From an uncultured Chromatiales bacterium (lineage in GTDB: Bacteria > Pseudomonadota > Gammaproteobacteria > Poriferisulfidales > Poriferisulfidaceae), in the NCBI GenBank assembly GCA_964526195.1, contig CAZGIH010000017.1, forward strand, positions 131,888-195,887: DNA of 64,000 nt, given 5' to 3'. Under the pieces are notes generated by a model that made no database searches, was not told the DNA's origin, and saw only the letters and a list, made by a program, of their open reading frames with translations. A program made the position numbers and the translations under genes. This document shows positions 2,624 to 25,570 of this stretch, piece after piece (the first letter of the stretch is position 1; each line of letters begins with the position of its first letter).

Positions 2624-2938
2624 TCAAGACGCCTGTTTGGCCTTTTCCCTGGCTTCGAACGCCGCCATTTGCTCTGGAGTGGCCTCTTTCTGATACCGGG
2701 ACTTCCATTCGGCATATGGCATGCCGTAGACGATTTCCCGGGCTGCGTCATAATCCAGGGTCACGCCTCGCTCTTCTGCTGCGGCCACGTACCACTTGGA
2801 GAGACAGTTCCGGCAGAAGTCCGCCAAGTTCATCAAGTCGATATTCTGGACTTCGGGCTTGCTCCTCAGGTGCTCAACAAGACGCCGATAGACGGCCGCC
2901 TCGATCTCCTCGCGCTGATTCTCGGTTATTTCCGACAT
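2624..2938 (-). CDS. DUF1244 family protein
   Basis: 104 aa with the conserved DUF1244 pattern (NIDLMNLADFCRNCLSKWY...IVYGMPYAEWK). Confidence 0.6.
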   Translation of the reverse strand: MSEITENQREEIEAAVYRRLVEHLRSKPEVQNIDLMNLADFCRNCLSKWYVAAAEERGVTLDYDAAREIVYGMPYAEWKSRYQKEATPEQMAAFEAREKAKQAS

Positions 2939-3248
2939 TGCATTTGGATCCTTGAAAATTTCTTTGGGACTGTTTCAGTATACCCGCATACCAGTACCAC
3001 CCTATAAATTCGATATCCAATCAAATAAAGAAGTCAAGAATAGCCCCAATGGCATTGACTTATAGCGGCAAACCTTGCCGCAAGTAGGTTTCCGTCGCTA
3101 TTCAGGCATCGGCCCAACCCGTCGGAGATGCACTCTGTACCTCATTCGGCACCTTCCTTTACCAATAGGTTTATGCGGGGCTCGCGCACAGATGTGCCCG
3201 GATCGCCCCGAGTGCCAGAATGACAGTCAAGTACGAAGTTTAGATGAT

Positions 3249-3872
3249 GTTGCGGCACTCAATCTATGTGACTAAAATAGAATGAGCGGGTTATACTGGA
3301 ATCCCGTCGTTGCGGCTGGCCCTCAATCTCTAAGCGGCTAAAATTGCTCGCCATACACATGACGCCAAGGCACCGTTGCGGCTGGCCCTCAATCTCTAAG
3401 CGGCTAAAATTCGATTGTCCAGTTGATCGACCGCCAGGTGGTTGCGGCTGGCCCTCAATCTCTAAGCGGCTAAAATGATAAGGCTAATAAGCAACTAAAG
3501 CGGTTCGTTGCGGCTGGCCCTCAATCTCTAAGCGGCTAAAATGTGTGGAAGTTTGACATGACGCCCAAGCAAGTTGCGGCTGGCCCTCAATCTCTAAGCG
3601 GCTAAAATCCATGGGGATAATTACCATCCTCAATAATTGTTGCGGCTGGCCCTCAATCTCTAAGCGGCTAAAATAGGTTGACAAATAGACAGAAAGGTAT
3701 TTCAGTTGCGGCTGGCCCTCAATCTCTAAGCGGCTAAAATAAACGAAGGAGGAAGCAGTAATGGATCACCGTTGCGGCTGGCCCTCAATCTCTAAGCGGC
3801 TAAAATATTAGAAACCATGTTCCGTCAGTAGTCAATGTTGCGGCTGGCCCTCAATCTCTAAGCGGCTAAAAT
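3249..3872 (+). CRISPR. CRISPR array: 9 identical 36-bp repeats (GTTGCGGCTGGCCCTCAATCTCTAAGCGGCTAAAAT), 30-bp spacers, plus a degenerate 30-bp terminal repeat at 3249-3278
   Basis: Full repeats start at 3309, 3375, 3441, 3507, 3573, 3639, 3705, 3771 and 3837 (exact 66-bp period). A degenerate copy (gttgcggcactcaatctatgtgactaaaat) is followed by one more 30-bp spacer. The 36/30 geometry is typical of type II-C. Confidence 0.97.
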
Positions 3873-3881
3873 GCAACCACT

Positions 3882-3919
3882 GAAAGCCCTTGTTTTACAA
3901 GGGCTTTCCTTTTATCTTT
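3882..3919 (+). terminator. Rho-independent terminator between array and cas2 (10-bp stem gaaagccctt/aagggctttc, then T-rich tract)
   Basis: Perfect 10-bp inverted repeat with a 7-nt loop, followed on the + strand by cttttatcttt. It would stop array read-through into the convergent cas2. Confidence 0.6.
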
Positions 3920-3944
3920 ATCAGAATTATTCATACTGAAAGTC

Positions 3945-4289
3945 TCAAAAGAGGACTAGTTGGTCCAATTTTTTTTCACCACTTTCGCTTTTTCCGCCCA
4001 CGAAAGTGCGGGCATTAGCGTATTGTTTATCAGTAATTGTCATCATATGTACCTTGCCACGATTTGGCAAGGCTGAACACACCCTCTTCACTTGAGTTTC
4101 AACTGCCTCTTTGCTTTCGGCAAAACGTAAATAGACTGAAAATTGTGCCATCTCAAAGCCGTGGTCAAGCAAAAAATTTCGAAACTTCGTCGCTGCCTTA
4201 CGTTCAGCCTTTGTCCCTACGGGCAGATCAAACATGACATAAAGCCACATCATTCGATACCCGCTTAAAACTGGCCAATGTGTATTCAT
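3945..4289 (-). CDS. cas2: CRISPR-associated endoribonuclease Cas2 (type II)
   Basis: Motif MMWLYVMFDLP...ERKAATKFRNFLLDHGFEMAQFSVY matches type II Cas2. The start at MNTHW (4289) gives an ATGA overlap with the cas1 stop. The ORF-track upstream extension is rejected. Confidence 0.85.
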   Translation of the reverse strand: MNTHWPVLSGYRMMWLYVMFDLPVGTKAERKAATKFRNFLLDHGFEMAQFSVYLRFAESKEAVETQVKRVCSALPNRGKVHMMTITDKQYANARTFVGGKSESGEKKLDQLVLF

Positions 4290-5191
4290 TGTATTGTGCC
4301 TAACGGTCGCGTCCACCGGGGGAATTCTAATTTTTTGGCCTCTCCCGCATAGCAACGGGCAGCAGAAAGAGTCAAGTGGTGGAGGCATGTAGATATTGGG
4401 CTTGCACCAGTATCTGTATCCATGTCGTAAAAAAGAATCCGCGCAAGTTCTGGTTTTGTGTTTTTGTTTACACCAGTAGAACCCTCTTTCGCGAGATTGT
4501 AGACAAGCATATCTGCGGTTGGCCTGAATGGTTCCATTAGATCGTCGGCGAGGGCAAAGGAATTCCCACGTTGTCGGTGAGCTAAGCCCAAACTGGGGTG
4601 AAGTCCAGCACCCATAATTGCCCTAGCTACGCCCGCACGTAATACCGTATACGTGTAATTCAGCATTGCATTGACGCCCTCTGCATAGCGATCACGGCGA
4701 AAATCTTTGCCAAACAAAAGCGGCCAGTATCTACGTGCCGCTTGAGCCTCTATATTCTCTGGATCCCCGGAGCGTACGGAGCGAGCAAGACGATTGAATC
4801 CTTTATGCGTTGTTCCAACTGTTGCGAGAGTTATACCTTGTGCCTGGATTTTTGCAGAAACAATTTGAGCCCAAAGACGCTTACGCAGGGGCTTGGATGC
4901 TGACGCCTGGTCCGATATCCGCCCACCCTGTTCATAATGCCCGGACGCAGTCCAGAGAAAACCAGCCGGTCGATGATTCACACCACATACTACGAGAGGG
5001 ACACAGCGTTCGGTTAATGCAACTAAAAGACTGTTCGTATACGTAATGCCATGTGCACTTGCAATCACTGCTGCCACATCATCCAGTGGAACCCTCCCGA
5101 TCTCCTCGCCTTGTGATTCAATTGTAAGAAAGCCGCGAAACTTACTGATATGGTGGCCATCCTCGGCAATCTCTACAATTCGCCCGGTCAT
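4286..5191 (-). CDS. cas1: CRISPR-associated endonuclease Cas1 (type II)
   Basis: 301 aa Cas1-like protein. Its start overlaps the cas9 stop (TAATG). Confidence 0.9.
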   Translation of the reverse strand: MTGRIVEIAEDGHHISKFRGFLTIESQGEEIGRVPLDDVAAVIASAHGITYTNSLLVALTERCVPLVVCGVNHRPAGFLWTASGHYEQGGRISDQASASKPLRKRLWAQIVSAKIQAQGITLATVGTTHKGFNRLARSVRSGDPENIEAQAARRYWPLLFGKDFRRDRYAEGVNAMLNYTYTVLRAGVARAIMGAGLHPSLGLAHRQRGNSFALADDLMEPFRPTADMLVYNLAKEGSTGVNKNTKPELARILFYDMDTDTGASPISTCLHHLTLSAARCYAGEAKKLEFPRWTRPLGTIQ

Positions 5192-8100
5192 TAGCAGTGC
5201 TTTATCGGGAAAACTCGACCTATAGAATCAACACGTACAAGGCACGCACTTGCTGTCTTTAAGGTGGAATAACTTTTAATTTCGTAACGGAATAGATCGT
5301 CTGGGTCATTATGACGTTCGCCCAACGAACCTGCCTCGTAGTGAGGTGCGAGTTTCAGACGATTAGCCGAAGCATCCAAACTGCAAACTCTATAGATGGT
5401 TCGACCATTCCCAAAATCTGCCTCCACGAGATCGCCATTGTGTACCTTCATAACCAACTCGGCATTGGGATGTTTGTTGCGCCAGTTAGGTGTGAAGTTG
5501 GGTTGGTTGGCATCGAAGACAGTTACGCCTTCACCCAGCCATTTATCCTGCAATGAATAAATCTCAATGCGGTGATTGTCGCCAGCGGAATAGAGCTTAT
5601 AAAATCCATCGCCATGCTCAACTTTGTACACCGATTTTTCCGTTTTCAGTATTCGAATTCTGCGAATGCCGGAGCTTTCTCCAAATTCAGCTAATGCCTC
5701 CTTCAATTTATGACCAGCTCTTTTTGCGGCATCACGGATTTGTTGAAGATCCCGACGCAAAGAAGCATCATGTACGCGATCTATCTCACTATCTGTCAAC
5801 TCACTGATAGGTTTCCGGACAACAAGATTGTATTCTTTTCCTTCGATTGTCGCTTTAACCTCCCCGTAAGCTGTGCCTTCAAGTAGGGCTCCAGAAGTAA
5901 CGTGGATGTTGCTTTGTGCGTTAGGTGGAATTCCATGATCAGGCTTATGGCTAACAACCAATTTCTTCATTGAATTATCCAGTGCCTCCCAGTACCCCGA
6001 AAAAGGAATTGGGAAACTATTGTTGGGGAAAAGTCTCTCAAGATTCAATTCTTCGGAGCGACCTGATGCTTTTGATATCTGATCCAGCAACCCTATGTCA
6101 GTGCAGGCCAGAACAAACGCATCGACAGCGTGGTGTCTATGGTCTTTCCGATTTTTAATCTTTGTGCCACCTCCGGTTTGGATTGAAGGAATGGCACCAA
6201 GTCGCCACCGAGCTCGTAGCATCGCGGTAAGTCGTCCGGGAGAAGCATCGACACGTTTGCAGATATGCTCAAGATAAGTCTTTGCAAGGCGCGATACGTA
6301 CTGTGTGTCTGTTAGGTGTCGAGCTGCAAGGCCACCTTTCTCCTCAAAATCCTCCATGGCATCAGGAAAGAAGCGCCAAGCTTTTCTGGGAATAACCCGC
6401 TCAGCACGCTCAGCGATTTCAAGAAGTTTTTGGCCGTGCCATGCTTCAGCAGGTGCCTGGTTTAGTTTTTCCCGATTACTTTCACGTGTACACAACACCT
6501 TATTCATGAAACCGTCGTCAAGTGTGCGGGAATAAGGCAAAATATGATCTATTTCTATTTGATCACTGAACAGCGCGCACTTTGATATTTGTTCTCCCGT
6601 GTAGATGCACACTCGTTCATCTGGGGGGAGTTCGTGATACAGTCGCAGGCGAAGCCTGTTTGCATATGTGTCTTCTTCATTCAATGCATTGAGCTGGTCG
6701 CGGTTCCTGTCGTTCGCTTCTCTATTATCTTTGTTTTTCTTGTTTTCTTTTTGCTTACGCTCCTTACTCCACTTCAGTTCACGAGCTAGTTCAACCACAA
6801 TCCCATCTGGTGGGCCGTATGTCGCTATTAGCGCATTGATGATCTTGCGCAGTTGATTGAGTCCAATATGGACAGTCGGATTGGGCACTCTCCCTATCCG
6901 GTCCTGGCTCCCTTCTGGGGCAGATGGTCGAGAGATGACATGACGCGCAAGCACTTCACCATAGTATGGAAGTTTGGTCTGTTGATCGGGCCTCAGATCT
7001 GAGTGGTGTTCATCAATACGCTGGACAGCTTCGTCATAGGTTAAAGGTCGCTGATATATTTCTCCAGTCTCCGTATTCGTACATTCTTCCGATTCAGTTT
7101 CCATAACCCGGACAATATCACGCAACACTGAGCGGCCAAAGTTGCCGTGACCTTGAGGCAAACGCACATCAGAGATTTTCTCGGCCGCCTCCTGCTTCAG
7201 GTTAAATTTGTCTTGAAGCCACTGGTGAAGGCGTTCTTCATCCTCGTCAGACAAAAGACATTCTATAATCTCGTCTTTAGCCGTGCTGGTAAGTGAATCC
7301 CAAGCCTTTCCAAAAGAATTTTTTGCTCTTAGCTTGCTTGCAGTCTGATCCGATTGGAAGCCGTCGCGGCCTAAGCCCTCGTAGTTAAAACGTATGCCAT
7401 CCGGCAGTTGAAGTGCTTTCCTAAGAGCCTCGAATGCGACGACTCTTGATTGCCGCCGCTCCAGTACGGCCACAAGAGCATCGCGCTGGGGAAGAGTCAG
7501 GAAACGCTCCGGGGACCCGGGTCGAACAAGTCGTAGTTGGCACACGTCCTGAAGGATCCGGAATTTCTGAAAGAGCGGATGTGCCTTTGGCGTTCGCTCA
7601 CCCATATCAATTTCAATTCCCTGATACACAAAGACTTTGTTTTCGTCTGGACGCAATGTGCAACGTCCGACAATCTGTGGTTTAAGTGGCCTTTGCTCAA
7701 GGATCGTTTCCCTAATTTTTTCAAGCAATTGTTCAGTGAGAATATCTGGATAGTGAACTTTCTGCTCCGTCCAAATGCAATCAATCTCTTGCTCGACAAG
7801 TTCGCGTGTTGGATAAAAGTCATAGAGATTTTTGCTACCCTTAGATGTCGGCCGGAAGCGCACTGGCGATGGTGAGCCTCCGCCATTGTCATCCTTGCTT
7901 TTCTTGATTCGGTTTCCTTCTCTGTCGATGCGATACCCTTCCTTGTCTCTTCGGTGGCGATTAGCGAGAAATTCGCCAAGCGTCCGAAACTCTTGTTCCT
8001 CTACGATTTTCTCTTTGAGTGCTTGTGCTCCCTGCTTCATCGCACTTTTTTCATTATTATCTGCATCAGAGATCCGATTCGATTTAAATCCTCTTCGTTG

Positions 8101-8487
8101 ATTTATGTGGAACAAGGCACGACCGAGTTCAAACAAATCAAGCCGATGATCCAAAGCCCTGCAACGTAGCCAATAAGGATCAATTTTCTCAAGCTTTTTC
8201 CGCTCATCTTTATCACGAGGCATCAAGCCTGACTCGATCAAAATGGACATTAGACGATCTCGGCGGCGCAAAAAACGGTCCCGACGGCGGCGTGCACTGC
8301 GTGCGTCTCGACGATTTGCAGCCAAGGATGTCTTGGATTTCGGATCTTTTCCCGCTTCATCATTGGGGGTCAAAATGCGCACTCCCGCATCCAACACCCC
8401 CGAGGGGCGCTTATCCGCATCAAGCGTAACGGCACACCAACCAATAGAGTTGGTGCCCATATCCAAACCTAGTCGGTAAGGAGTCAT
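5191..8487 (-). CDS. cas9: Cas9 (type II-C, 1098 aa)
   Basis: RuvC-I at the N-terminus (GLDMGTNSIGWC), arginine-rich bridge helix (RRRRDRFLRRRDR), HNH (IDHILPYS...NKVLC), RuvC-III (HHAVDAFVLA). No csn2 or cas4 is adjacent. Lower GC than the flanking genes. Confidence 0.95.
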   Translation of the reverse strand: MTPYRLGLDMGTNSIGWCAVTLDADKRPSGVLDAGVRILTPNDEAGKDPKSKTSLAANRRDARSARRRRDRFLRRRDRLMSILIESGLMPRDKDERKKLEKIDPYWLRCRALDHRLDLFELGRALFHINQRRGFKSNRISDADNNEKSAMKQGAQALKEKIVEEQEFRTLGEFLANRHRRDKEGYRIDREGNRIKKSKDDNGGGSPSPVRFRPTSKGSKNLYDFYPTRELVEQEIDCIWTEQKVHYPDILTEQLLEKIRETILEQRPLKPQIVGRCTLRPDENKVFVYQGIEIDMGERTPKAHPLFQKFRILQDVCQLRLVRPGSPERFLTLPQRDALVAVLERRQSRVVAFEALRKALQLPDGIRFNYEGLGRDGFQSDQTASKLRAKNSFGKAWDSLTSTAKDEIIECLLSDEDEERLHQWLQDKFNLKQEAAEKISDVRLPQGHGNFGRSVLRDIVRVMETESEECTNTETGEIYQRPLTYDEAVQRIDEHHSDLRPDQQTKLPYYGEVLARHVISRPSAPEGSQDRIGRVPNPTVHIGLNQLRKIINALIATYGPPDGIVVELARELKWSKERKQKENKKNKDNREANDRNRDQLNALNEEDTYANRLRLRLYHELPPDERVCIYTGEQISKCALFSDQIEIDHILPYSRTLDDGFMNKVLCTRESNREKLNQAPAEAWHGQKLLEIAERAERVIPRKAWRFFPDAMEDFEEKGGLAARHLTDTQYVSRLAKTYLEHICKRVDASPGRLTAMLRARWRLGAIPSIQTGGGTKIKNRKDHRHHAVDAFVLACTDIGLLDQISKASGRSEELNLERLFPNNSFPIPFSGYWEALDNSMKKLVVSHKPDHGIPPNAQSNIHVTSGALLEGTAYGEVKATIEGKEYNLVVRKPISELTDSEIDRVHDASLRRDLQQIRDAAKRAGHKLKEALAEFGESSGIRRIRILKTEKSVYKVEHGDGFYKLYSAGDNHRIEIYSLQDKWLGEGVTVFDANQPNFTPNWRNKHPNAELVMKVHNGDLVEADFGNGRTIYRVCSLDASANRLKLAPHYEAGSLGERHNDPDDLFRYEIKSYSTLKTASACLVRVDSIGRVFPIKHC

Positions 8488-8537
8488 TGCGGAATTGGTC
8501 GCACAGCTATAGCGGAACCGGTTAGTGTAATATACAT

Positions 8538-19368: not shown

Positions 19369-20469
19369 CTATTCGAACAGGTTCGCCTGGTCGGACGGCA
19401 CACGAAACCGATCCGTCCGCAGCGAGCGGCGCTGCCCGTTCAATCCATGCTGTTTACAGGCCAGCGTGAAACGCTGACGAAGCAGACGAGCAAATTCTCC
19501 CTGCCCGCTCAAGCGGCGTCCGAATTCGGGATTGTAGTCAACCCCTCCATGGAGACTCCGAACTGTATTCATGATTCTTTCGGCCCGCTCCGGAACGTGT
19601 TGCTGAAGCCATTCCCGAAACAGTTGCTTCAATTCATGTGGTAGACGCAGGACTACGTACCCGGCACAGTAAGCGCCCTCTTCTGCCACGACCTTGACGA
19701 TGTCCTCCAGTTCGCCGTCGTTCAGGAATGGAATCATTGGAGCCGCCAAGACGCCAACCGGGATCCCCGCCTGCGACAACGCCCCCACCAGCGCAATCCG
19801 CGAATGAGGCGCCCCGGCGCGAGGTTCGAGAGTTCGGCTGAGTTTTGCATCCAGCGTCGTGACGGAGACAACCACTTCTGCGAGACCATCCTGGGCCATG
19901 TCCTGCAGGATGTCCATATCCCGCTCAAGCAGGGGGGACTTGGTAATAACCGAGACTGGATGGCGAAATTCCCGCAGAACTTCGAGGATGGATCGGGTGA
20001 TCTTGAGTTGACGTTCGACCGGCTGGTAGGCATCCGTGTTGTAGCCGAGACCAATCGTCCCACATCGATAGTGGGGAGCCCGAAGTTCACGTTCCAGGAT
20101 TTCCGCTGCATTCGTCTTACAGAAAATCTGGGTTTCGAAGTCCAAACCAGGCGACAGCCCTAAGTAAGCGTGATTGGGCCGCGCGAAGCAGTATGCACAG
20201 CCATGCTCACAGCCGCGGTAGGGATTGATAGAGCGGTCCAGCGCAATGTCAGGTGATTTGTTGTAATTGATCAGGCTTTTTGCCGGAGCGTCGAAGTAGC
20301 GTGTCGCAAGGGTTCCTTCCTCGTATTCGCGGCCATCATGCTGGAATTCGATTTGTTCCAGCTCATAGCGTCCCGGCGGGTTGCTGATCGCACCACGGCC
20401 TTTTCGGTAGGTCCACTGGACAGGGCTTTCGGTTGGATCCACGGTTAAGCCATTCCCTATTTCTGACAC
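19369..20469 (-). CDS. Radical SAM protein, PA0069 / spore-photoproduct-lyase-like DNA repair family
   Basis: CEHGCAYCF radical-SAM cysteine triad; 366 aa. Confidence 0.7.
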   Translation of the reverse strand: MSEIGNGLTVDPTESPVQWTYRKGRGAISNPPGRYELEQIEFQHDGREYEEGTLATRYFDAPAKSLINYNKSPDIALDRSINPYRGCEHGCAYCFARPNHAYLGLSPGLDFETQIFCKTNAAEILERELRAPHYRCGTIGLGYNTDAYQPVERQLKITRSILEVLREFRHPVSVITKSPLLERDMDILQDMAQDGLAEVVVSVTTLDAKLSRTLEPRAGAPHSRIALVGALSQAGIPVGVLAAPMIPFLNDGELEDIVKVVAEEGAYCAGYVVLRLPHELKQLFREWLQQHVPERAERIMNTVRSLHGGVDYNPEFGRRLSGQGEFARLLRQRFTLACKQHGLNGQRRSLRTDRFRVPSDQANLFE

Positions 20470-20674
20470 ATTTCAATCGTAATCAATCTCTATCCCGACA
20501 GGGATTAATATACGATCTTACCCAAGGAGAGATATGAGTATTTGTTCTGGTTTGCTTTTTTCTCTAACTCCATTGCCAGCAGCTATGTTTAGAATTTTCC
20601 TCTATATGGTTAGAACCCTTTCTCTCTCCCAGAAAAAACCATACATTCCTACGAAAACCACGTGGCGAATTATG

Positions 20675-21076
20675 TTAACCCCACCATTTGGCTAAATGTC
20701 CTATGCCCCAGACAAGAAGGCTTATGAACAAGACAATTGGGAGCATCCGAACCACAATGTAAAAGGTAAAGTCGAAAGGCTCCCATGCGTCCTCTAAAAT
20801 TTCTTTTAAAGGCTCCGGCAGTCGATCCCACCAAGCCTTTATTCTGCCTATGACGGAAGCAAGCGTCGGCAGTGGCTTCTTGAGCTTCGGGTATATAGCC
20901 CACAATAAAATCAGGGCACCAATACTGACACCGAGGTAATTCCACCAGTGCCACTCCGGTCCTATCATGCCAAGATTGCCCAGCGTGTTTTGCAGAGAGT
21001 TCACCACCTCTGGCCAACTTAAAGTAATCCATAAGGCTCCGAAGAGGATAGAGCCAAGCGTTGCTCGCGGGCGCAT
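20675..21076 (-). CDS. Small hypothetical membrane protein (low-GC island)
   Basis: 133 aa with TM helices and Trp-rich loops. Preferred over the overlapping 20670..21080 frame because of its hydrophobicity pattern. Confidence 0.45.
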   Translation of the reverse strand: MRPRATLGSILFGALWITLSWPEVVNSLQNTLGNLGMIGPEWHWWNYLGVSIGALILLWAIYPKLKKPLPTLASVIGRIKAWWDRLPEPLKEILEDAWEPFDFTFYIVVRMLPIVLFISLLVWGIGHLAKWWG

Positions 21077-21146
21077 ACAATTATTTTACTTCCCTACAAT
21101 AATTAAAGAAAAATTTTGGGAATTATGTAGCAAAATCTGCAAGGGC

Positions 21147-21175
21147 TTGACTTTTCCCAGAAAATAAGATATAAT
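21147..21175 (+). promoter_or_regulatory. Consensus sigma70 promoter for the transposase (TTGACT-17-TATAAT), followed by a 9-bp perfect palindrome at 21178-21204
   Basis: TTGACT 21147-21152 and TATAAT 21170-21175 with a 17-bp spacer. tctgcaaat-N9-atttgcaga lies between the -10 and the ATG and repeats the inner IR sequence (atctgcaa). Confidence 0.6.
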
Positions 21176-21213
21176 AATCTGCAAATAAGGAAATCATTTG
21201 CAGAGAATAAGAA

Positions 21214-22137
21214 ATGAGCAAGAGAAAAGCAGAAACCATCAGCGTCACCCAGTTGCTGAAAATGTTTTCAACCGAGCGCAAGGCCGTGGAATGGCTGGAA
21301 CAGGCTCGATGGGGTGGCACTCCGGTTTGCCCGCATTGCGGTGGCATCGAGAACATTAGCAAGCCGAAGAGCAAGCCGTTCACCTACTGGTGCAAGCCTT
21401 GCCGTAAGAACTTCACGGTCAAGACCGGCACCATCATGCACGCATCCAAGACTTCCACGCAGAACTGGGTGGTTGCCATCTATTCGGTGCTGACTGCCCG
21501 CAAGAGCGTGAGCAGTCTCCAGTTGAGCAAGGAACTGGGCGTACAGCAACGCACTGCTTGGTACATGCTTCACCGGATCCGCGAAGCTTGCCAGCAGGGA
21601 GACTTCAAACTGTTCGGTTCGGTTGAAGTGGATGAGACTTACATCGGCGGCCTGGAAGACAATAAGCATGAGAGCAAGAAACTTCATGTCGGCGGCGGCG
21701 GGGGCGGCAAGCAGGCCGTCTTGGGTATGCGTGAACGCGGTGGCAAGGTGAAGGCCATGCCGATTGCCGACACCACCAAGTCCACCTTGCAGGGCAAGGT
21801 GCATGAGAATGTCCGACCGGGTTCCACGATATACACGGACGAGAATTCGTCTTACACGGGTATCGCGCACCGGCATTACACCGTCAATCATTCAGCGAAG
21901 GAATACGTGAACGACATGGCGCACACCAATGGCGTGGAATCAGTTTGGGCAGTCCTCAAGCGCGGCGTGAATGGAACCTTCCACCATGTCAGCAAGAAGC
22001 ACCTGCATCGTTACCTGAACGAGTTCACCTTCCGTCTCAATGAGGGGAATTGCGAGATTGATACAATCGACCGCATGGATTCCCTGGTCAAGGGAATGGG
22101 CGGTAGGCGCATTCCCTACAAGGAACTGACAGCGTAA
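21214..22137 (+). CDS. IS1595-family transposase (N-terminal zinc ribbon + DDE domain)
   Basis: 307 aa: CPHCGG...CKPCRK zinc ribbon followed by a DDE-type core. Confidence 0.85.
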   Translation: MSKRKAETISVTQLLKMFSTERKAVEWLEQARWGGTPVCPHCGGIENISKPKSKPFTYWCKPCRKNFTVKTGTIMHASKTSTQNWVVAIYSVLTARKSVSSLQLSKELGVQQRTAWYMLHRIREACQQGDFKLFGSVEVDETYIGGLEDNKHESKKLHVGGGGGGKQAVLGMRERGGKVKAMPIADTTKSTLQGKVHENVRPGSTIYTDENSSYTGIAHRHYTVNHSAKEYVNDMAHTNGVESVWAVLKRGVNGTFHHVSKKHLHRYLNEFTFRLNEGNCEIDTIDRMDSLVKGMGGRRIPYKELTA

Positions 22138-22176
22138 GGGTGAATCATGCAAATTGTATAACTATGGGGATTGCCT

Positions 22177-22497
22177 ATGAAAACACTAATAACTACAACA
22201 ATTTCAGTCATGGCCTTGGCCACTCTCTTAATTTCTGGGCATGCCATGTCATATGATGAATTTGAGGGGAATATTCTTCATGAACGTTGCAAGAAAGGAG
22301 ACACGATAGGTCACAGGCGGATGGATATTTTGTTAGGGAAAGAAGATGAAATGTATCAGGCGCTAAAAATGGAGAGTGACCCGAAACAGATAAAAGCCTA
22401 TCTGGAAGCGATCATTGCACTTGACAAAAAAGGTATAGTTCTCGCTGAGGGGACGGATCGGTTTTGTGCATTAACTAATCCCCCGGCGAATAAGTGA
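22177..22497 (+). CDS. Small secreted hypothetical protein (IS passenger)
   Basis: Signal peptide MKTLITTTISVMALATLLISGHA. AT-rich. Confidence 0.4.
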   Translation: MKTLITTTISVMALATLLISGHAMSYDEFEGNILHERCKKGDTIGHRRMDILLGKEDEMYQALKMESDPKQIKAYLEAIIALDKKGIVLAEGTDRFCALTNPPANK

Positions 22498-22604
22498 AAG
22501 ACCGGTCACAATGACTGGCCTTTCTTTAGGGAATTATACGGAAGAATCCGAAAAACCCACCTGTTTCTAGGGATTTATGTAGGTAACTTGACAGGAGAAG
22601 CTTC

Positions 22605-23015
22605 ATGAACAACAAAGCTCAACGCATACTCGAAAATGTTCGACAAATCTTTGCGGTAACGTTGGGGTGGATTGCTTGGCTCCTTATTTTGGTTTGGATA
22701 GGAGCGATAACCATAACTGCCGAACAACACGGCATTTCTTTATTCGGGCCACTCCTTTTAACTACAGTTATTTTGGGCGGGATTTTGGGTGGAATATTAT
22801 TTGTCGGTCTGGCATATTATGCTTTCCCAAAAACAAAAAGAAAATTTCCATTCATTACTGCTTCTATCTGGGCCACGCTCGCTATGATTGTAGGCATAAA
22901 TAATATGGTGATTGATAATAGTAGCGGGCCTGATTACTTTACCTATGGGGCAAGCACGATAATTACATTATTAATTTTTTATGTCTTAAATAGATACCAC
23001 ACCGCCCGGTCCTAA
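22605..23015 (+). CDS. Hypothetical 4-TM membrane protein (IS passenger)
   Basis: 136 aa hydrophobic protein with GGILGGILF repeats. AT-rich. Confidence 0.4.
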   Translation: MNNKAQRILENVRQIFAVTLGWIAWLLILVWIGAITITAEQHGISLFGPLLLTTVILGGILGGILFVGLAYYAFPKTKRKFPFITASIWATLAMIVGINNMVIDNSSGPDYFTYGASTIITLLIFYVLNRYHTARS

Positions 23016-23151
23016 ATCGAACGTCTTTATCTGTCAGCCACGCCTGTCAAATTATCTATATAGTTCCCGGCCTTTCTCTATTGACAAAGGTACAAGATGG
23101 TGTTTAGCATATTGCAATAGGCTGTGCCAGCATAAACAGGTCTAGGGTGAT

Positions 23152-23388
23152 ATGCCAAGAGACATGGAATTAATTAGGATGATTCTGATCTATGTTCGGA
23201 ATCATGCAAAATCTGGTTCACTTGTTTTCCCTTCATTCGCTGGTTATGAAAAGGGGATGGTTGATTATCACGTCATGCTGTGCGAACAAGCCGGGTATCT
23301 CCAGTTGAATGAGGAAACGCTGGACGAAGAACGTCTAATCCTGAACTTGACTTGGGCTGGACACGAATTTCTATCGAAGGGGAAATAA
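23152..23388 (+). CDS. DUF2513 family protein (IS passenger)
   Basis: The N-terminus MPRDMELIRMILIYV matches the DUF2513 consensus (MKRDMDLIRKILL). Confidence 0.5.
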   Translation: MPRDMELIRMILIYVRNHAKSGSLVFPSFAGYEKGMVDYHVMLCEQAGYLQLNEETLDEERLILNLTWAGHEFLSKGK

Positions 23389-23776
23389 TCCCCCTCTTCA
23401 ATGTAATTCCCCTTCCATGGTCAAGAAACTAGACCCCGCCAACCATGAGCCGGTTTCACTGAAAGACTTTCAGGATGCGCTGAAGAGCATCCTGCTGAAA
23501 CCGATAGAGAAAAAGACCCGTTGGGAGAACCGGGAGCCGACCATGAAGGAGTTGTCTGTGAGATTCAAGTTGAAGCGGCGGAAATGACTTTTGCAGATTT
23601 TGCTACATAATTCCCAAAATTTTTAAATTCCATCAAGAAATAATATAGAAGAAAGTGCATGAAATCTACGCTTTTATCTAGTTAAAAGTGTATCATTAAT
23701 ACAGTAATATCTAGGATAAATTGCCGTAAATAAAAATTTATGATAAAATATTTTTGGTAATTCAACATTTTCATTC

Positions 23777-25084
23777 ATGGAAAGACTCGCATACAAAGAG
23801 CTTGTTAAATGGAAAAATCAAGCTCAGCGCAAGCCCGTTTTGATTGACGGGGCGCGCCAAACTGGAAAAACTTATCTTGTCGAAGATCTTTTTGGTGCTC
23901 AAGAATTTCGTCGCGTCCATAAACTTGATTTTCGTGCCAATCCAGAACTAGCCCGCATTTTCGAAGATGGCCTCTCCCCTGCCCAAATTATTGCTAATGC
24001 GGAAATAATGTTAGGCGAACGTATCGCTCCAGAACATGATTTACTGTTCTTCGACGAAGTTGGAGACTGCCAACAGGCAGTAGACTCACTTAAATATTTT
24101 GCTGAGGATATGCCGACCGGCTATATCTGTGCTACTGGATCAAATATCGGGTTGTTAGATTCTTTTCCTGTCGGAAAGGTTGAAAGTCTCGAGTTGTTTC
24201 CGTTATGTTTCGAGGAATTTTTACGAGAATTGGCATCCGAACCAGTACTAGACGCATTCATCCAGAACCGTAGAGGAGCCGCAATTCACCAAAAACTTTG
24301 GCAATACCTATGCGATTATTACTTTGTTGGGGGTATGCCAGAGGCAGTGAGTGCTTGGTCTCATGAAGTTCTCAGCATCCATGATCGAATTGGAATGGTC
24401 GAGGCAACCCACAAAAATATCGTTAGAGGATTTTGCCGTGATTTCGGGAAATATTCCGGTGGCGTACAGGCAATGCACATCGAAGCTGTGTTCCGAAACA
24501 TCCCAATGCAATTGTCTAAAACTATGGATGAATCCGTCAAACGCTATCGCTTTGGTGATGTGATTTCTCGGAAAAAACGTTATCAGGACCTGCGTGGGCC
24601 TATAGACTGGCTCGAAAAAACGCGCCTAGCGTGGAAATCACATCCCATTAGGTCAAGCCCAACGATTCCTCTAGCTCCTTTATGCAAAGAGAATGACTTC
24701 AAACTTTATTTATTCGATGTTGGAATTCTCGGCCATCTCCTAGGACTCAGATATGCCGACCACAAAGGTCAGATGATAGATTACAAGGGATTCATCGCCG
24801 AGAACTTTTTTTTGGTTGAATATCGCTCGCGCATCGGGTATCCGGTCTACAGTTGGGCGCAGAGAGACGCTGAAATCGAATTTCTGCACCGGGATAAGAA
24901 AGGTGTCATTATTCCCGTGGAAGTAAAGAGCGGTAAGCGCACACGGGCGCGAAGCCTTGGATCATATATCGGACGATACCAACCACAGCATGCGGTCAAA
25001 TTCGCCAATATTCAAAGATCGACACAAAGTGGGATTATTTCTACCTGGCCTTTGTACGATGTGCAGTTTTTGCGAAATCTTTAG
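23777..25084 (+). CDS. AAA+ ATPase, COG1373 (AAA_14 + DUF4143)
   Basis: Walker A GARQTGKT and Walker B LLFFDEV; 435 aa. Low-GC gene with an AT-rich upstream region. Confidence 0.75.
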   Translation: MERLAYKELVKWKNQAQRKPVLIDGARQTGKTYLVEDLFGAQEFRRVHKLDFRANPELARIFEDGLSPAQIIANAEIMLGERIAPEHDLLFFDEVGDCQQAVDSLKYFAEDMPTGYICATGSNIGLLDSFPVGKVESLELFPLCFEEFLRELASEPVLDAFIQNRRGAAIHQKLWQYLCDYYFVGGMPEAVSAWSHEVLSIHDRIGMVEATHKNIVRGFCRDFGKYSGGVQAMHIEAVFRNIPMQLSKTMDESVKRYRFGDVISRKKRYQDLRGPIDWLEKTRLAWKSHPIRSSPTIPLAPLCKENDFKLYLFDVGILGHLLGLRYADHKGQMIDYKGFIAENFFLVEYRSRIGYPVYSWAQRDAEIEFLHRDKKGVIIPVEVKSGKRTRARSLGSYIGRYQPQHAVKFANIQRSTQSGIISTWPLYDVQFLRNL

Positions 25085-25099
25085 AACGCGCCCTACAGA

Positions 25100-25570
25100 T
25101 CAGATAAATCCCAGCGTCCACTCGGCCACACCGAGCACAAGCAACGTCAGGATTCCCGCGAATAGGTCGTCCAGCATGATGCCGACCCCTCCACTGAACC
25201 GACGGTCTGCCCAACCTATGGGCCCCGGCTTGACAATGTCGAATATGCGGAAAAGCACGAACCCTGCAACCGCCCAAGCCAAGCTACGCGGTGCCGCCGC
25301 CATGGCGACTAGATAACCGGTCATCTCATCCCACACGACTTCTTTGGGATCAGGGTCTCCGAAAGTCTCCACCGCCTGCTCGCACAACCAGACCCCGATT
25401 ACCAGCATGATTCCCAGTACCAGCACGTAGAGAGACCAAGGATGTGCAGACAATCCGAAGTAGAGCACCGCCCCCAAGAGGGTTCCGACGGTGCCCGGAA
25501 TTTTCGGGCAATAGCCCACCCCGAAGCCAGTTGCCAGAAAAACGGTCAAGCCCTGCCAAGTGATACGCAT
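25100..25570 (-). CDS. pgpA: Phosphatidylglycerophosphatase A
   Basis: 156 aa membrane protein with the PGTVGTL and MLDDLFAG motifs. Confidence 0.85.
   Translation of the reverse strand: MRITWQGLTVFLATGFGVGYCPKIPGTVGTLLGAVLYFGLSAHPWSLYVLVLGIMLVIGVWLCEQAVETFGDPDPKEVVWDEMTGYLVAMAAAPRSLAWAVAGFVLFRIFDIVKPGPIGWADRRFSGGVGIMLDDLFAGILTLLVLGVAEWTLGFI

Follow-up and report, generated by a model that had tools for sequence, protein, structure and literature searches.

The low-GC region between a PA0069-type radical SAM gene and pgpA in the window, the 64,000-nucleotide stretch of DNA analysed here, raises the question of whether its genes arrived together as one island of mobile or defence cargo, as a preliminary description had it, or in separate steps. 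The host genome is that of a Candidatus Porisulfidus-like sponge symbiont. The sharp GC drop reported in that description was borne out, with GC at 0.452 over positions 20445-25090 versus 0.587 for the remaining window; in 500-bp segments, the mean was 0.457 inside the region (minimum 0.366) and 0.587 outside it (sd 0.044). The transposase gene was the only stretch of the region close to genome GC. All of the genes previously called here were recovered on re-analysis (Table 1). The conserved start of the radical SAM gene is probably a GTG at 20442 (VDPTE...), and the stop codons of pgpA and the ATPase gene are 15 bp apart, an adjacency found identically in a sister locus (L031). A second low-GC region in the window, at about 2800-8500, is a CRISPR-Cas9 locus.

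Table 1. Features of the interval between the radical SAM gene and pgpA and of its flanks (window coordinates).
Feature	Position	Strand	Basis
PA0069-family radical SAM gene, left flank	19369-20469	-	Pfam Radical_SAM; NCBIfam NF033668, 470 bits
Window-specific spacer replacement, left part	20445-21117	.	blastn vs L029; spacer alignment; GC
Orphan membrane protein memb133, 133 aa	20675-21076	-	Hydropathy: 2-3 hydrophobic helices
Target site duplication (TSD) AAAATTTT, left copy	21110-21117	.	Sequence; abuts IRL
IS1595-family transporter IS, 2,498 bp	21118-23615	+	Perfect 25-bp IRs, 8-bp TSD
IS1595 transposase, 307 aa (Zn ribbon + DDE)	21214-22137	+	PF12762 E 8e-44, PF12760, NCBIfam transpos_IS1595
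Cargo slot, 1,279 bp, GC 0.42	22138-23416	+	blastn vs L034 and L032; junction sequences
Passenger 1 (sec108), 108 aa, N-terminal signal-peptide-like helix	22171-22497	+	Hydropathy
Cassette-like segment bounded by IS-type ends	22529-23068	+	Repeats D1, D4, I2
Passenger 2 (tm136), 136 aa, 3-4 TM	22605-23015	+	Inside cassette-like segment
Passenger 3, DUF2513 protein, 78 aa, C-terminally short	23152-23388	+	Pfam PF10711 E 5e-16, profile 2-80 of 100; phrog_585
orfB of the IS, 56 aa	23417-23587	+	Homologs beside IRR in other copies
TSD AAAATTTT, right copy	23616-23623	.	Sequence; directly after IRR
AT-rich ATPase upstream region	23624-23776	+	blastn vs L029, promoter scan, GC
AAA_14+DUF4143 ATPase, 435 aa	23777-25084	+	Pfam; PADLOC PDLC04786, E 3e-105
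pgpA, right flank	25100-25570	-	Pfam PgpA, E 1e-41

We compared the interval between pgpA and the radical SAM gene across sister genomes, whose loci fell into four groups, and found it to be a variable accessory site. The ATPase gene occupied the same position and orientation in at least eight sisters (L002, L003, L004, L007, L012, L029, L030 and L031). The empty site that had been proposed as a check in sister genomes was found, as the interval lacked the ATPase in six sister species (L001, L006, L009, L010, L011 and L013) and held other cargo elsewhere; three of these six sites look like secondary losses. At one sister locus, a 2,155-aa Fn3 protein stood in place of the ATPase. The neighbours of the ATPase also varied, with HigB/HigA adjoining it in L002, a RelE-like toxin and an HTH protein in L003, and HigA with a degraded HigB in L012. 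In L004 it adjoined a cas operon of type I-C together with an array of 12 repeats, and pgpA lay beyond the 10 kb examined.

The ATPase itself matched the PADLOC model for the defence candidate PDC-S01 over residues 1-433 of 435. Its Walker A (G25..K31) and Walker B (D93-E94) motifs and a nuclease motif (E342/E348, E368, E382-V-K384) were identified, and the Walker A/B and E..ExK columns were invariant across 42 homologs. An AF2 model showed an AAA+ fold, for which Foldseek returned matches to RuvB, RFC and ClpA. The C-terminal domain is predicted to be PD-(D/E)XK nuclease-like from a model of medium confidence (pLDDT 68) whose best PDB matches, VRR-NUC, AvaII, NucS and Bax1, were weak (Foldseek E 0.05-0.3); DUF4143 has been placed in the PD-(D/E)XK class (PMC3424549). 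The AT-rich, promoter-like DNA described ahead of this gene was also present: the spacer between the IS and the ATPase (23616-23776) has a GC of 0.22, its portion at 23672-23776 is conserved with L029 and L031, and a promoter-like sequence with an upstream TG, TTGCCG-17-TAAAAT, occupies 23721-23749.

Selection and allele divergence at this gene were then compared with those of its flanks. The ATPase dN/dS was 0.04-0.11, similar to that of the neighbouring radical SAM gene, showing that the ATPase is kept intact by purifying selection. Among the window copy, L029, L001-L004 and L007, flanks were 7-12% apart at the nucleotide level, whereas ATPases were 29-35% apart, and the ATPase clades (window, L029, L031) and (L002, L007, L012) cut across the flank tree. 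At least four deeply diverged alleles of the gene occur, which are out of step with the genome tree and may have been swapped by recombination through the conserved flanks. GC3 was 0.42-0.64 in the ATPase versus 0.62-0.74 in the flanks, and this compositional disequilibrium could partly inflate synonymous divergence between alleles.

What the ATPase does can be approached from its family and its neighbourhood. The link between this family and defence islands, noted previously, held up in that the ATPase is itself a PADLOC defence candidate and is adjoined in sisters by toxin-antitoxin pairs or type I-C CRISPR-Cas. We infer a conflict gene with phages or mobile elements as its target, in which ATP-dependent assembly on foreign nucleic acid would license the C-terminal nuclease. 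Its long retention at a fixed site, strong purifying selection and repair-type neighbours (a Mug-like glycosylase and the radical SAM gene) also fit a housekeeping role in DNA transactions, and it could instead be a host accessory factor for DNA repair, recombination or replication restart that would owe its position to the repair genes beside it. Consistent with such a role, its dN/dS is in line with that of a housekeeping neighbour, it is retained in at least eight lineages with reduced genomes of 1.5-2 Mb, and the family is very uniform in length (435-436 aa), with 55-59% identity across many genomes. One of the two family members checked outside the genus (L077) lies amid metabolic genes, near imuB/dnaE2-like genes. 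Our literature search found no experimental support for PDC-S01 defence; in the one heterologous test found, four of eight candidates gave protection against T4, T5 and T7, and a cold-seep PDC-S01 expressed in E. coli B was not one of them (bioRxiv 10.1101/2024.09.26.614923). Against a repair factor stand the absence of the gene, without replacement at the site, from six sister species, and alleles three to four times more divergent than the flanks, with an incongruent tree. Moreover, the genes neighbouring it at this site in sisters are toxin-antitoxin pairs and CRISPR-Cas rather than repair genes, and the ATPase gene points away from the repair genes and is not inherited together with them. 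We therefore regard the repair role as unlikely and favour the conflict gene.

The DNA to the left of the ATPase has a different history. Homology to the closest relative, L029, ended at 20444 and restarted at 23672 (blastn), and between these points, leaving the IS aside, 721 bp with a GC of 0.44 (20445-21117 plus 23624-23671) stand in place of a native 180-bp spacer, which in several sisters holds the palindrome GGTGATACCATCACC. This non-homologous replacement would have brought in the orphan gene memb133 and taken away the native sequence upstream of the radical SAM gene. memb133 had no match in Pfam, NCBIfam, PHROG or PADLOC and was absent from every sister locus compared. An exhaustive HMMER search returned itself and nine weak matches (E 3e-6 or worse), mostly to the hydrophobic N-terminal half, and the exact protein was found only in reads from the same organism.

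The IS lies between perfect 25-bp inverted repeats GGGAATTATGTAGCAAAATCTGCAA (IRL 21118-21142, IRR 23591-23615), for which a search gave two matches versus zero expected, and a promoter-like site at 21147-21175 (promoter scan 11/12) precedes its transposase gene. A 2,508-bp contig (L028) was 100% identical to the IS, and identical inverted repeats with other 8-bp TSDs were found in L032, L034 and L035. The 56-aa ORF next to IRR was considered as a passenger and rejected, since homologs of 52-63 aa adjoin IRR in L032, L034, L038 and L082, making it a conserved backbone gene of the IS (orfB). Comparison of copies revealed a cargo slot in this IS lineage, which runs from the transposase stop to the orfB start and, in the window, takes the place of about 40 bp of a basic, cargo-free IS of 1,266 bp (L034 and L035). 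By copy, the slot held nothing, a DNA methyltransferase (N6/N4 type, in a 3,055-bp copy, L032, which apparently belongs to the sister genome of L007), a GT8 glycosyltransferase (L082) or, in the window, three small genes, so the earlier claim that the IS carries passengers was correct, all of them lying inside the inverted repeats. Three further elements of 1,296 bp (L083-L085) had the inverted repeats of the window IS and an 8-bp TSD, lacked a DDE transposase, and were of a type with a TnpB-family gene inside.

Within the cargo, we observed five IR-like ends versus 0.5 expected (P<0.001). The cassette-like segment around tm136 has IRL-like copies at 22529-22553 and 22570-22594 and an IRR-like copy at 23044-23068; a 12-bp near-repeat, GGCCTTTCT[T/C]TA, abuts its two outer ends, and no canonical 8-bp TSD was found at this inner cassette. 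Upstream of it, sec108, which is followed by a terminator-like hairpin (22502-22518, terminator scan), had no family match in Pfam, NCBIfam, PHROG or PADLOC, and a search for viral relatives found none. tm136 has relatives (60-62%) carried by an IS1595-family element in L074 and adjoining IRR in L071-73, and L075 has an IRL-like end and 40 codons in common with the tm136 region at 90% nucleotide identity. The DUF2513 gene has a promoter-like site at 23081-23110 and a weaker IRR-like end at 23395-23411, and its 27 viral relatives (29-47% identity) are mostly 116-125 aa long versus 78 aa here. The nested IR-like ends suggest piecemeal accretion of the cargo, partly by way of a transposase-less cassette bounded by IS-type ends. 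The cargo would not be a dedicated defence module.

The passengers had instead been proposed to form one module for abortive infection or for a secreted toxin with membrane immunity. They are indeed compact and on the same strand, and there are promoter-like sites at 21147 and 23081. IS1595-family elements repeatedly carry relatives of tm136, which in L074 and L072 are again preceded by a signal-peptide protein of ~115 aa, and contigs of phages and prophages often contain DUF2513. The trio, however, did not recur: only tm136 had relatives in other IS1595-family elements, with different partners; no similarity was detectable between sec108 and the L072 and L074 signal-peptide proteins; and the other tm136-type loci lacked DUF2513. 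In PADLOC, a check proposed in the preliminary description, none of the three passengers matched any model. The DUF2513 protein falls short of its viral relatives by about 40 aa, 26 viral DUF2513 loci had no conserved membrane partner adjoining, and IR-like ends separate the passenger genes. A module is accordingly quite improbable, and we retain piecemeal accretion.

Delivery of the whole 4.6 kb as a single recent genomic island, which would account for the low GC throughout except at the transposase gene and for the mobile element within, is considered refuted, since the ATPase is an old resident of exactly this site in eight relatives without memb133 or the IS, the IS has its own TSD within the region, the memb133 segment has its own homology breakpoints, and the 4.6 kb are not delimited by an integrase, a tRNA or flanking repeats. 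Both the memb133 segment and the IS were added separately and are specific to this lineage. From the proposal of mobile or defence cargo we thus keep a variable accessory site, an IS with passengers and a PDC-S01 candidate, and drop the one island and the passenger module. On balance, we judge this intergenic hotspot to be a three-layer accessory locus, in which the old layer would be the single-gene AAA+ ATPase with its PD-(D/E)XK nuclease-like domain (PDC-S01/COG1373), the second the 721-bp spacer replacement, and the third the IS, a recent insertion in the AT-rich spacer 161 bp ahead of the ATPase gene.

The locus is an informative example, but a precedented one. Transporter ISs (tIS) of the IS1595 family were described by Siguier, Gagnevin & Chandler (2009), as cited in PMC3129680. 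Like these, the window IS has a Zn ribbon with DDE_Tnp_IS1595, inverted repeats starting GGG, an 8-bp TSD and passenger genes within its ends. It differs from them in that its lineage has a conserved orfB at IRR and a single defined cargo slot, that copies with identical inverted repeats hold nothing, a methyltransferase, a GT8 glycosyltransferase or three small genes, and that the window copy contains nested IR-like ends. Mobile insertion cassettes of the MIC231 type, in which non-transposase genes lie between IS-derived inverted repeats (De Palmenaer et al., 2004, cited in PMC3129680), resemble both window positions 22570-23068, where IS-type inverted ends (33 nt, 76% complementary) surround a single non-transposase gene, and the L083-L085 elements. 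They differ from the inner cassette, which lacks a canonical 8-bp TSD and is nested in another IS, and from the L083-type cassette in the TnpB-family gene that the latter carries.

As in defence islands and hotspots, the window site lies between two conserved core genes, has atypical composition, and varies in content among toxin-antitoxin pairs, CRISPR-Cas (L004, with pgpA beyond the sequence examined), a defence candidate and an IS. Unlike them, it is very small, with one to three genes in most genomes, the window site has no integrase or att-like repeats, and the ATPase occupies it almost constantly instead of being one of many alternatives. With PDC-S01 (COG1373), the ATPase shares a full-length HMM match, the same fusion of an ATPase to a PD-(D/E)XK-superfamily domain and a stand-alone gene (PMC12988326), with no difference in architecture, as well as adjoining known defence or toxin-antitoxin genes in sister genomes. 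What this locus newly adds for PDC-S01 is a view at population level: the syntenic site is fixed, species differ in having or lacking the gene, and its alleles form at least four deep lineages in conflict with the flank tree.

The stretch between pgpA and the PA0069-family radical SAM gene (20445-25090) has a GC content of 0.452, against 0.587 in the remainder of the window. In 500-bp windows the mean outside is 0.587 (sd 0.044) and the minimum inside is 0.366; within the stretch, the transposase gene alone lies near genome GC. The 4.6-kb drop in GC noted in the preliminary description is real, and every one of its gene calls was reproduced. Its view of the region as a mobile or defence island was partly right in flavour but wrong as to a single island: a search for tRNAs, integrases and bounding repeats was negative, the parts have separate histories in sister genomes, and the stretch is a composite. 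We distinguish three layers, namely the ATPase gene, a spacer replacement carrying a 133-aa membrane protein (memb133), and an IS1595-family element with cargo. An Rfam scan of 20300-25300 returned one chance-level miRNA match and nothing else. Separately, a second low-GC region of the window (3308-8487) is a type II CRISPR-Cas locus.

Features of the pgpA-radical SAM interval and of the second low-GC region (window positions)
Feature	Coordinates	Strand
CRISPR array, 9 copies of 36-nt repeat, 30-nt spacers	around 3309-3872	
Cas2	3945-4388	-
Cas1	4286-5191	-
Cas9, 1,098 aa (HNH_4, RuvC_III, Cas9_a)	5191-8487	-
PA0069-family radical SAM gene	19369-20469	-
memb133, 133-aa membrane protein	20675-21076	-
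IS1595 transposase	21214-22137	+
sec108, 108-aa signal-peptide protein	22171-22497	
tm136, 136-aa protein with 3-4 TM segments	22605-23015	
DUF2513 protein	23152-23388	
AAA_14+DUF4143 protein (ATPase), 435 aa	23777-25084	
pgpA	25100-25570	-

To place the site in its relatives, species-representative genomes were scanned with the radical SAM protein, giving 13 close loci (73-93% at the amino acid level), most of them labelled Candidatus Porisulfidus or sponge-associated Gammaproteobacteria and with chromosomes of 1.5-2.0 Mb; the content of each site was then read by tblastn with the window's proteins. Four sister loci (L002, L003, L007 and L012) have the ATPase between pgpA and the radical SAM gene, oriented as in the window; in L004 it adjoins the radical SAM gene. 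The empty site that the preliminary description proposed to look for in sister genomes was also found, pgpA standing directly beside the radical SAM gene with no ATPase in L001, L006, L009, L010, L011 and L013. Closer relatives recovered through the protein database carry the ATPase alone beside the radical SAM gene (L029/L030, 91% identical; L031, 80%); L031 has 18 bp between the ATPase stop and pgpA, an arrangement like that of the window. No sister locus holds memb133, the transposase or the passenger genes.

What accompanies the ATPase varies. In L002, genes for a HigB-like toxin and an HTH antitoxin separate pgpA from the ATPase, a RelE-like toxin gene overlaps an HTH/MqsA-like antitoxin gene in L003, and L012 has kept an HTH gene beside a decayed toxin. 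L004 holds a complete type I-C cas operon (Cas3, Cas5d, Csd1, Cas7, Cas4, Cas1, Cas2) with a 12-repeat array, which ends 25 bp from the ATPase stop and may lie in the same pgpA-radical SAM interval, the 10 kb covered there stopping short of pgpA. Spacers of this array and of the window's array had no match in any of the fetched loci or in the window. The picture is thus of a small accessory site whose content varies and in which conflict genes are enriched. L008 has a 7.4-kb insert of GC 0.75 at the site and no ATPase. This insert includes a gene for a 2,155-aa Fn3-repeat protein (L008:2865-9332; GC about 0.75 versus 0.62 for the genome). Cargo of a very different type occupies the hotspot in this one Porisulfidus species.

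The ATPase-free sites are of two kinds. In L001, L006 and L009 the two genes are separated by an AT-rich spacer of ~230 bp that is homologous among all three, and 60 nt of the L009 spacer resemble DNA just upstream of the L029 ATPase (72%, E 3e-6); in the distant L010, L011 and L013 the spacer is only 20-50 bp. With moderate support, this suggests that the ATPase was secondarily lost in the former three and that the site is naive in the latter three.

The PADLOC comparison separated the ATPase from its neighbours. The ATPase matches PDLC04786 (PDC-S01) with E 2.9e-105, residues 1-433 aligning to positions 3-433 of the 439-position profile, and two more PDC-S01 models match it (E 6e-80 and 3e-73). 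In contrast, PADLOC-DB v2 models gave no family for memb133, sec108, tm136, the DUF2513 protein, the small IS ORF (orfB) or the transposase. PHROGs and NCBIfam held nothing informative for the ATPase, memb133, sec108 or tm136. Pfam places AAA_14 (PF13173, residues 18-149) and DUF4143 (PF13635, 221-386) on one polypeptide, and in L007, L029 and L031 the gene stands alone, as a single-gene system. PDC-S01, described as an ATPase with a fused PD-(D/E)XK-superfamily domain, was found by guilt-by-embedding and is reported as the fourth most common "defence" call across prokaryotes, with validation pending (PMC12988326). A representative assayed in E. coli B was not among the 4/8 candidates that protected against T4, T5 and T7 (bioRxiv 10.1101/2024.09.26.614923), and PMC3424549 counts DUF4143/COG1373 among the PD-(D/E)XK families of unknown function.

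The ATPase has more than 6,000 homologs; among the top 120, nearly all are 435-436 aa long, and those outside the genus are 54-59% identical. Across 42 homologs the Walker A (G25..G30-K31-T, pattern GxxxxGK[ST]) and Walker B (D93-E94, hhhhDE) motifs are invariant, as is the PD-(D/E)XK motif, formed by E342/E348 on a helix, E368 on a strand and E382-V-K384 on a further strand. An AlphaFold model (pLDDT 73 overall, 86-96 in the N-terminal half) shows a confident AAA+ core and lid, with ClpA, RuvB, RFC, MgsA and ORC as top Foldseek matches. Residues 313-435, modelled separately (pLDDT 68), show a helix-strand-strand-helix-strand topology, and the best PDB matches of this model, weak at E 0.05-0.3, are VRR-NUC 4qbn, AvaII, NucS, Bax1 and EcoO109I, almost all PD-(D/E)XK nucleases. 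Searches by sequence found no solved-structure relative, either for the full ATPase or for the C-terminal profile against the PDB. The nuclease motif is thus present in the ATPase, and the modelled PD-(D/E)XK fold is supportive rather than proof. An ATPase-nuclease of this kind would act against phages or other mobile DNA, with ATP-dependent assembly licensing the nuclease.

We next compared the evolution of the ATPase with that of its surroundings. Between orthologs its dN/dS is 0.04-0.11, equal to that of the radical SAM gene next to it, indicating from sequence comparison a functional gene constrained by purifying selection. Over 2.4 kb of flank, the window, L029, L001, L002, L003, L004 and L007 are only 7-12% apart at the nucleotide level, while their ATPase genes are 29-35% apart. 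L031 has a flank 24-25% away, but its ATPase is just 26% from those of the window and L029; L012 has a flank 16-19% away, and its ATPase groups with those of L002 and L007 at 20-21%. These distances define at least four deep allelic lineages at one locus, with a tree in conflict with that of the flanks. Compositional disequilibrium may inflate the ATPase distances somewhat (GC3 0.42-0.64 versus 0.62-0.74), but it cannot produce the incongruent grouping. Most simply, alleles would have been replaced by recombination via the conserved flanks, or else the polymorphism would be a long-lived one.

The second layer is best delimited against L029, the closest relative. Homology to L029 reaches 20444, where the radical SAM gene has its conserved start, and picks up again at 23672, 105 bp 5' of the ATPase start. 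Between these breakpoints L029 has 180 bp, while the window, not counting the IS, has 721 bp of unrelated DNA (GC 0.44) encoding memb133, which an exhaustive search of 1.8 billion representatives showed to be effectively an orphan. An IRL-like 13-mer at 20665 beside memb133 was considered as a trace of an old cassette and set aside as consistent with chance, there being 3 such matches in 61 kb. A conserved, operator-like palindrome, GGTGATACCATCACC, lies ~60 bp upstream of the radical SAM start in L001, L002, L006, L009 and L012; L029 has a related, imperfect copy, and none is present at 20445-20500 of the window. Since the palindrome was replaced together with the spacer, regulation of the radical SAM and Mug-like glycosylase genes may differ in the window.

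The third layer is an IS of 2,498 bp (21118-23615) with 25/25 inverted repeats GGGAATTATGTAGCAAAATCTGCAA at 21118-21142 and 23591-23615, flanked by an 8-bp target-site duplication (TSD), AAAATTTT. Because this TSD is palindromic, the repeat finder stretched the arms to 34 nt. The transposase matches a Zn ribbon (PF12760, E 1e-9), a DDE domain (PF12762, E 8e-44) and NCBIfam transpos_IS1595 (204 bits; cutoff 75). The same inverted repeats occur elsewhere with other TSDs (TAACAAGA, GAATTCAA, TCAGCATG and ATGGTTTG). A Logan contig, L028, is 100% identical to the IS; its IS-sized length was discounted as evidence of multiple copies, since a k=31 graph would be broken by the 34-nt perfect inverted ends alone, which take in the palindromic TSD. 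Presumably the IS inserted into the ATPase spacer because that spacer is AT-rich and tolerates insertion. AT-rich, promoter-like DNA had been reported 5' of the ATPase, and we found a spacer GC of 0.22 and a promoter-like site at 23721-23749; as the conserved 105 bp 5' of the gene is intact, the predicted promoter has probably remained active. Transcription may also read through from the IS, as the DNA between orfB and the ATPase contains no terminator-like site.

Comparison with other copies exposed a cargo slot. Two basic copies of 1,266 bp (L034 and L035) have identical inverted repeats, TSDs GAATTCAA and TCAGCATG, and only the transposase gene and an overlapping 52-aa ORF. A 3,055-bp copy in L032 (transposase 95% identical, inverted repeats identical, TSD TAACAAGA) carries a 523-aa N6/N4 DNA methyltransferase between the transposase gene and a 57-aa ORF, and a metagenome scan with the inverted repeat found a GT8 glycosyltransferase in the same slot (L082). 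The window's 56-aa ORF is homologous to the small ORFs of the L032/L034 type (conserved ...PVS.KDFQDALKSILLKPI.K..RWENREPT.KEL...FKLKR) which makes it a backbone gene, orfB. Homology in the backbone extends over IS positions 1-1010 and 2303-2498, and 1,279 bp of cargo (22138-23416) lie between the transposase gene and orfB in place of ~40 bp of basic IS. With non-transposition genes inside the inverted repeats of an otherwise IS-like element, it has the makeup of a transporter IS (tIS). Just after the transposase stop, the slot starts at a C-homopolymer (L032:5945, TGACCCCCCCCCCC; basic IS L034:5920, GCGCCCCCCCGATCC), a possible hotspot for cargo-loading recombination.

In six loci, the P0124 branch of the IS family has restriction-modification, SIR2, KAP-NTPase and SocA genes as neighbours, which fits ISs accumulating in AT-rich accessory DNA. 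In ERZ25070530, six copies of a related 1,260-bp IS (L037-L042; transposase 72% identical, 8-bp TSDs) neighbour an SNF2/PLD helicase with a methyltransferase, HNH-methyltransferases, SIR2_2, EcoRII-C with a cytosine methylase, SocA_Panacea and a KAP NTPase, suggesting a preference for, or tolerance in, defence islands.

Extra copies of the IS terminus were found only in the window's cargo, two resembling IRL (at 22529 and 22570) and two resembling IRR (23044-23068 and 23395-23411). Allowing 3 mismatches to the terminus, the 1,279 bp contain five matching 13-mers where 0.5 would be expected (P<0.001), and the other 61 kb of the window hold none within 2 mismatches. One pair, 22570-22602 and 23036-23068 (33 nt, 76% complementary), brackets tm136, and the terminal 13-mers of the segment so enclosed (22570-23068) match the IS end at 12/13 and 11/13 positions. 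Considered as a candidate mobile insertion cassette, this inner segment has no 8-bp TSD, and its further copies are partial only (L075, 90% over 181 nt). A near-identical 12-bp direct repeat, GGCCTTTCTTTA at 22517-22528 and GGCCTTTCTCTA at 23069-23080 (that is, GGCCTTTCT[T/C]TA), abuts the IRL-like end at 22529 and the IRR-like end at 23068. It resembles a duplication but was rejected as a TSD, since those made by the IS are 8 bp long and the first copy doubles as the T-tail of a terminator-like hairpin.

Database searches gave four relatives of tm136. The one in L074, at 60%, is encoded last in a 2,881-bp IS1595-family element (inverted repeat GGGAATTATATACTTGACTCC, TSD ATTGGAGT) whose other genes include those for a P63C protein and a 120-aa signal-peptide protein. 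A relative at 62% is found in L071-L073, where hflX and hflK enclose a transposase-less remnant; there it has a degenerate IRR on one side and an L074-type IRR on the other. L075 and the window have the IRL-like end and the first 40 codons in common, at 90% nucleotide identity. DUF2513 is not among the neighbours of these relatives, whose partners differ, and the signal-peptide proteins of L072 and L074 do not resemble sec108. Scans of viral contigs found no relatives of tm136 or sec108. The DUF2513 ORF aligns to positions 2-80 of a 100-position profile and falls ~40 aa short of most of its 27 relatives on viral contigs, and no constant neighbour of DUF2513 was evident in 26 viral loci. The suggestion that DUF2513 and the membrane/secreted pair form an abortive-infection or toxin-immunity module thus found no backing, as the genes do not recur together elsewhere. 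We conclude that the cargo was probably assembled piecemeal, partly through a cassette with IS-type ends, and that the tm136 type appears to be a recurrent IS1595 passenger, the trio not being an established module.

The same inverted repeats also bound three 1,296-bp elements in assembly LXNI01 (L083:1461-2756, L084:5061-6356 and L085:3517-4812). Their ends match the IS1595-type repeats of the window IS at 25/25 and 23/25 positions, L083 has the 8-bp TSD ATGGTTTG, and the three copies are 83-87% alike. No DDE transposase lies inside; their gene encodes a 416-aa TnpB-family protein (HTH_OrfB_IS605, OrfB_IS605, Cas12f1-like TNB) and its 3' end runs into the inverted repeat. Titles and abstracts of papers matching both terms in a full-text search indicated no association of TnpB with IS1595.

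Taken together, we tentatively propose two non-exclusive ideas, to which as a pair we give rather less than an even chance: that PDC-S01 alleles form a long-lived polymorphism at the pgpA-radical SAM site, exchanged between Porisulfidus species by flank-mediated recombination, and that this IS1595 lineage serves sponge symbionts as a modular platform for shuttling genes. Under the first, the ATPase alleles would differ in target specificity. Under the second, the cargo slot would be fixed and the inverted repeats would also mobilise transposase-less cassettes, one of them with a gene for a TnpB-family RNA-guided nuclease. The shuttling series offers a defined example of a simple IS turning into a gene carrier, copies with identical ends being either empty or loaded with a methyltransferase, a glycosyltransferase or small membrane proteins, and it bears on gene flow in reduced symbiont genomes. 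The allelic polymorphism, if true, would be natural-population evidence that the abundant, unvalidated PDC-S01 is a conflict gene. Incongruence between allele and flank is the signature expected of such a gene and so strengthens the case for testing PDC-S01 (COG1373), which is reported to be among the most frequent "defence" calls in prokaryotic genomes yet has no demonstrated function; with its fixed site, conserved flanks, gene-free relatives and several deep alleles, the locus is a clean natural experiment on this family. Set against known systems, the ATPase is, as judged by its profile matches, a member of a known but unvalidated candidate family, PDC-S01, and the element is a predicted new transporter IS of a known family, IS1595; the useful additions of this locus are the pattern of allele turnover and the cargo-slot series.
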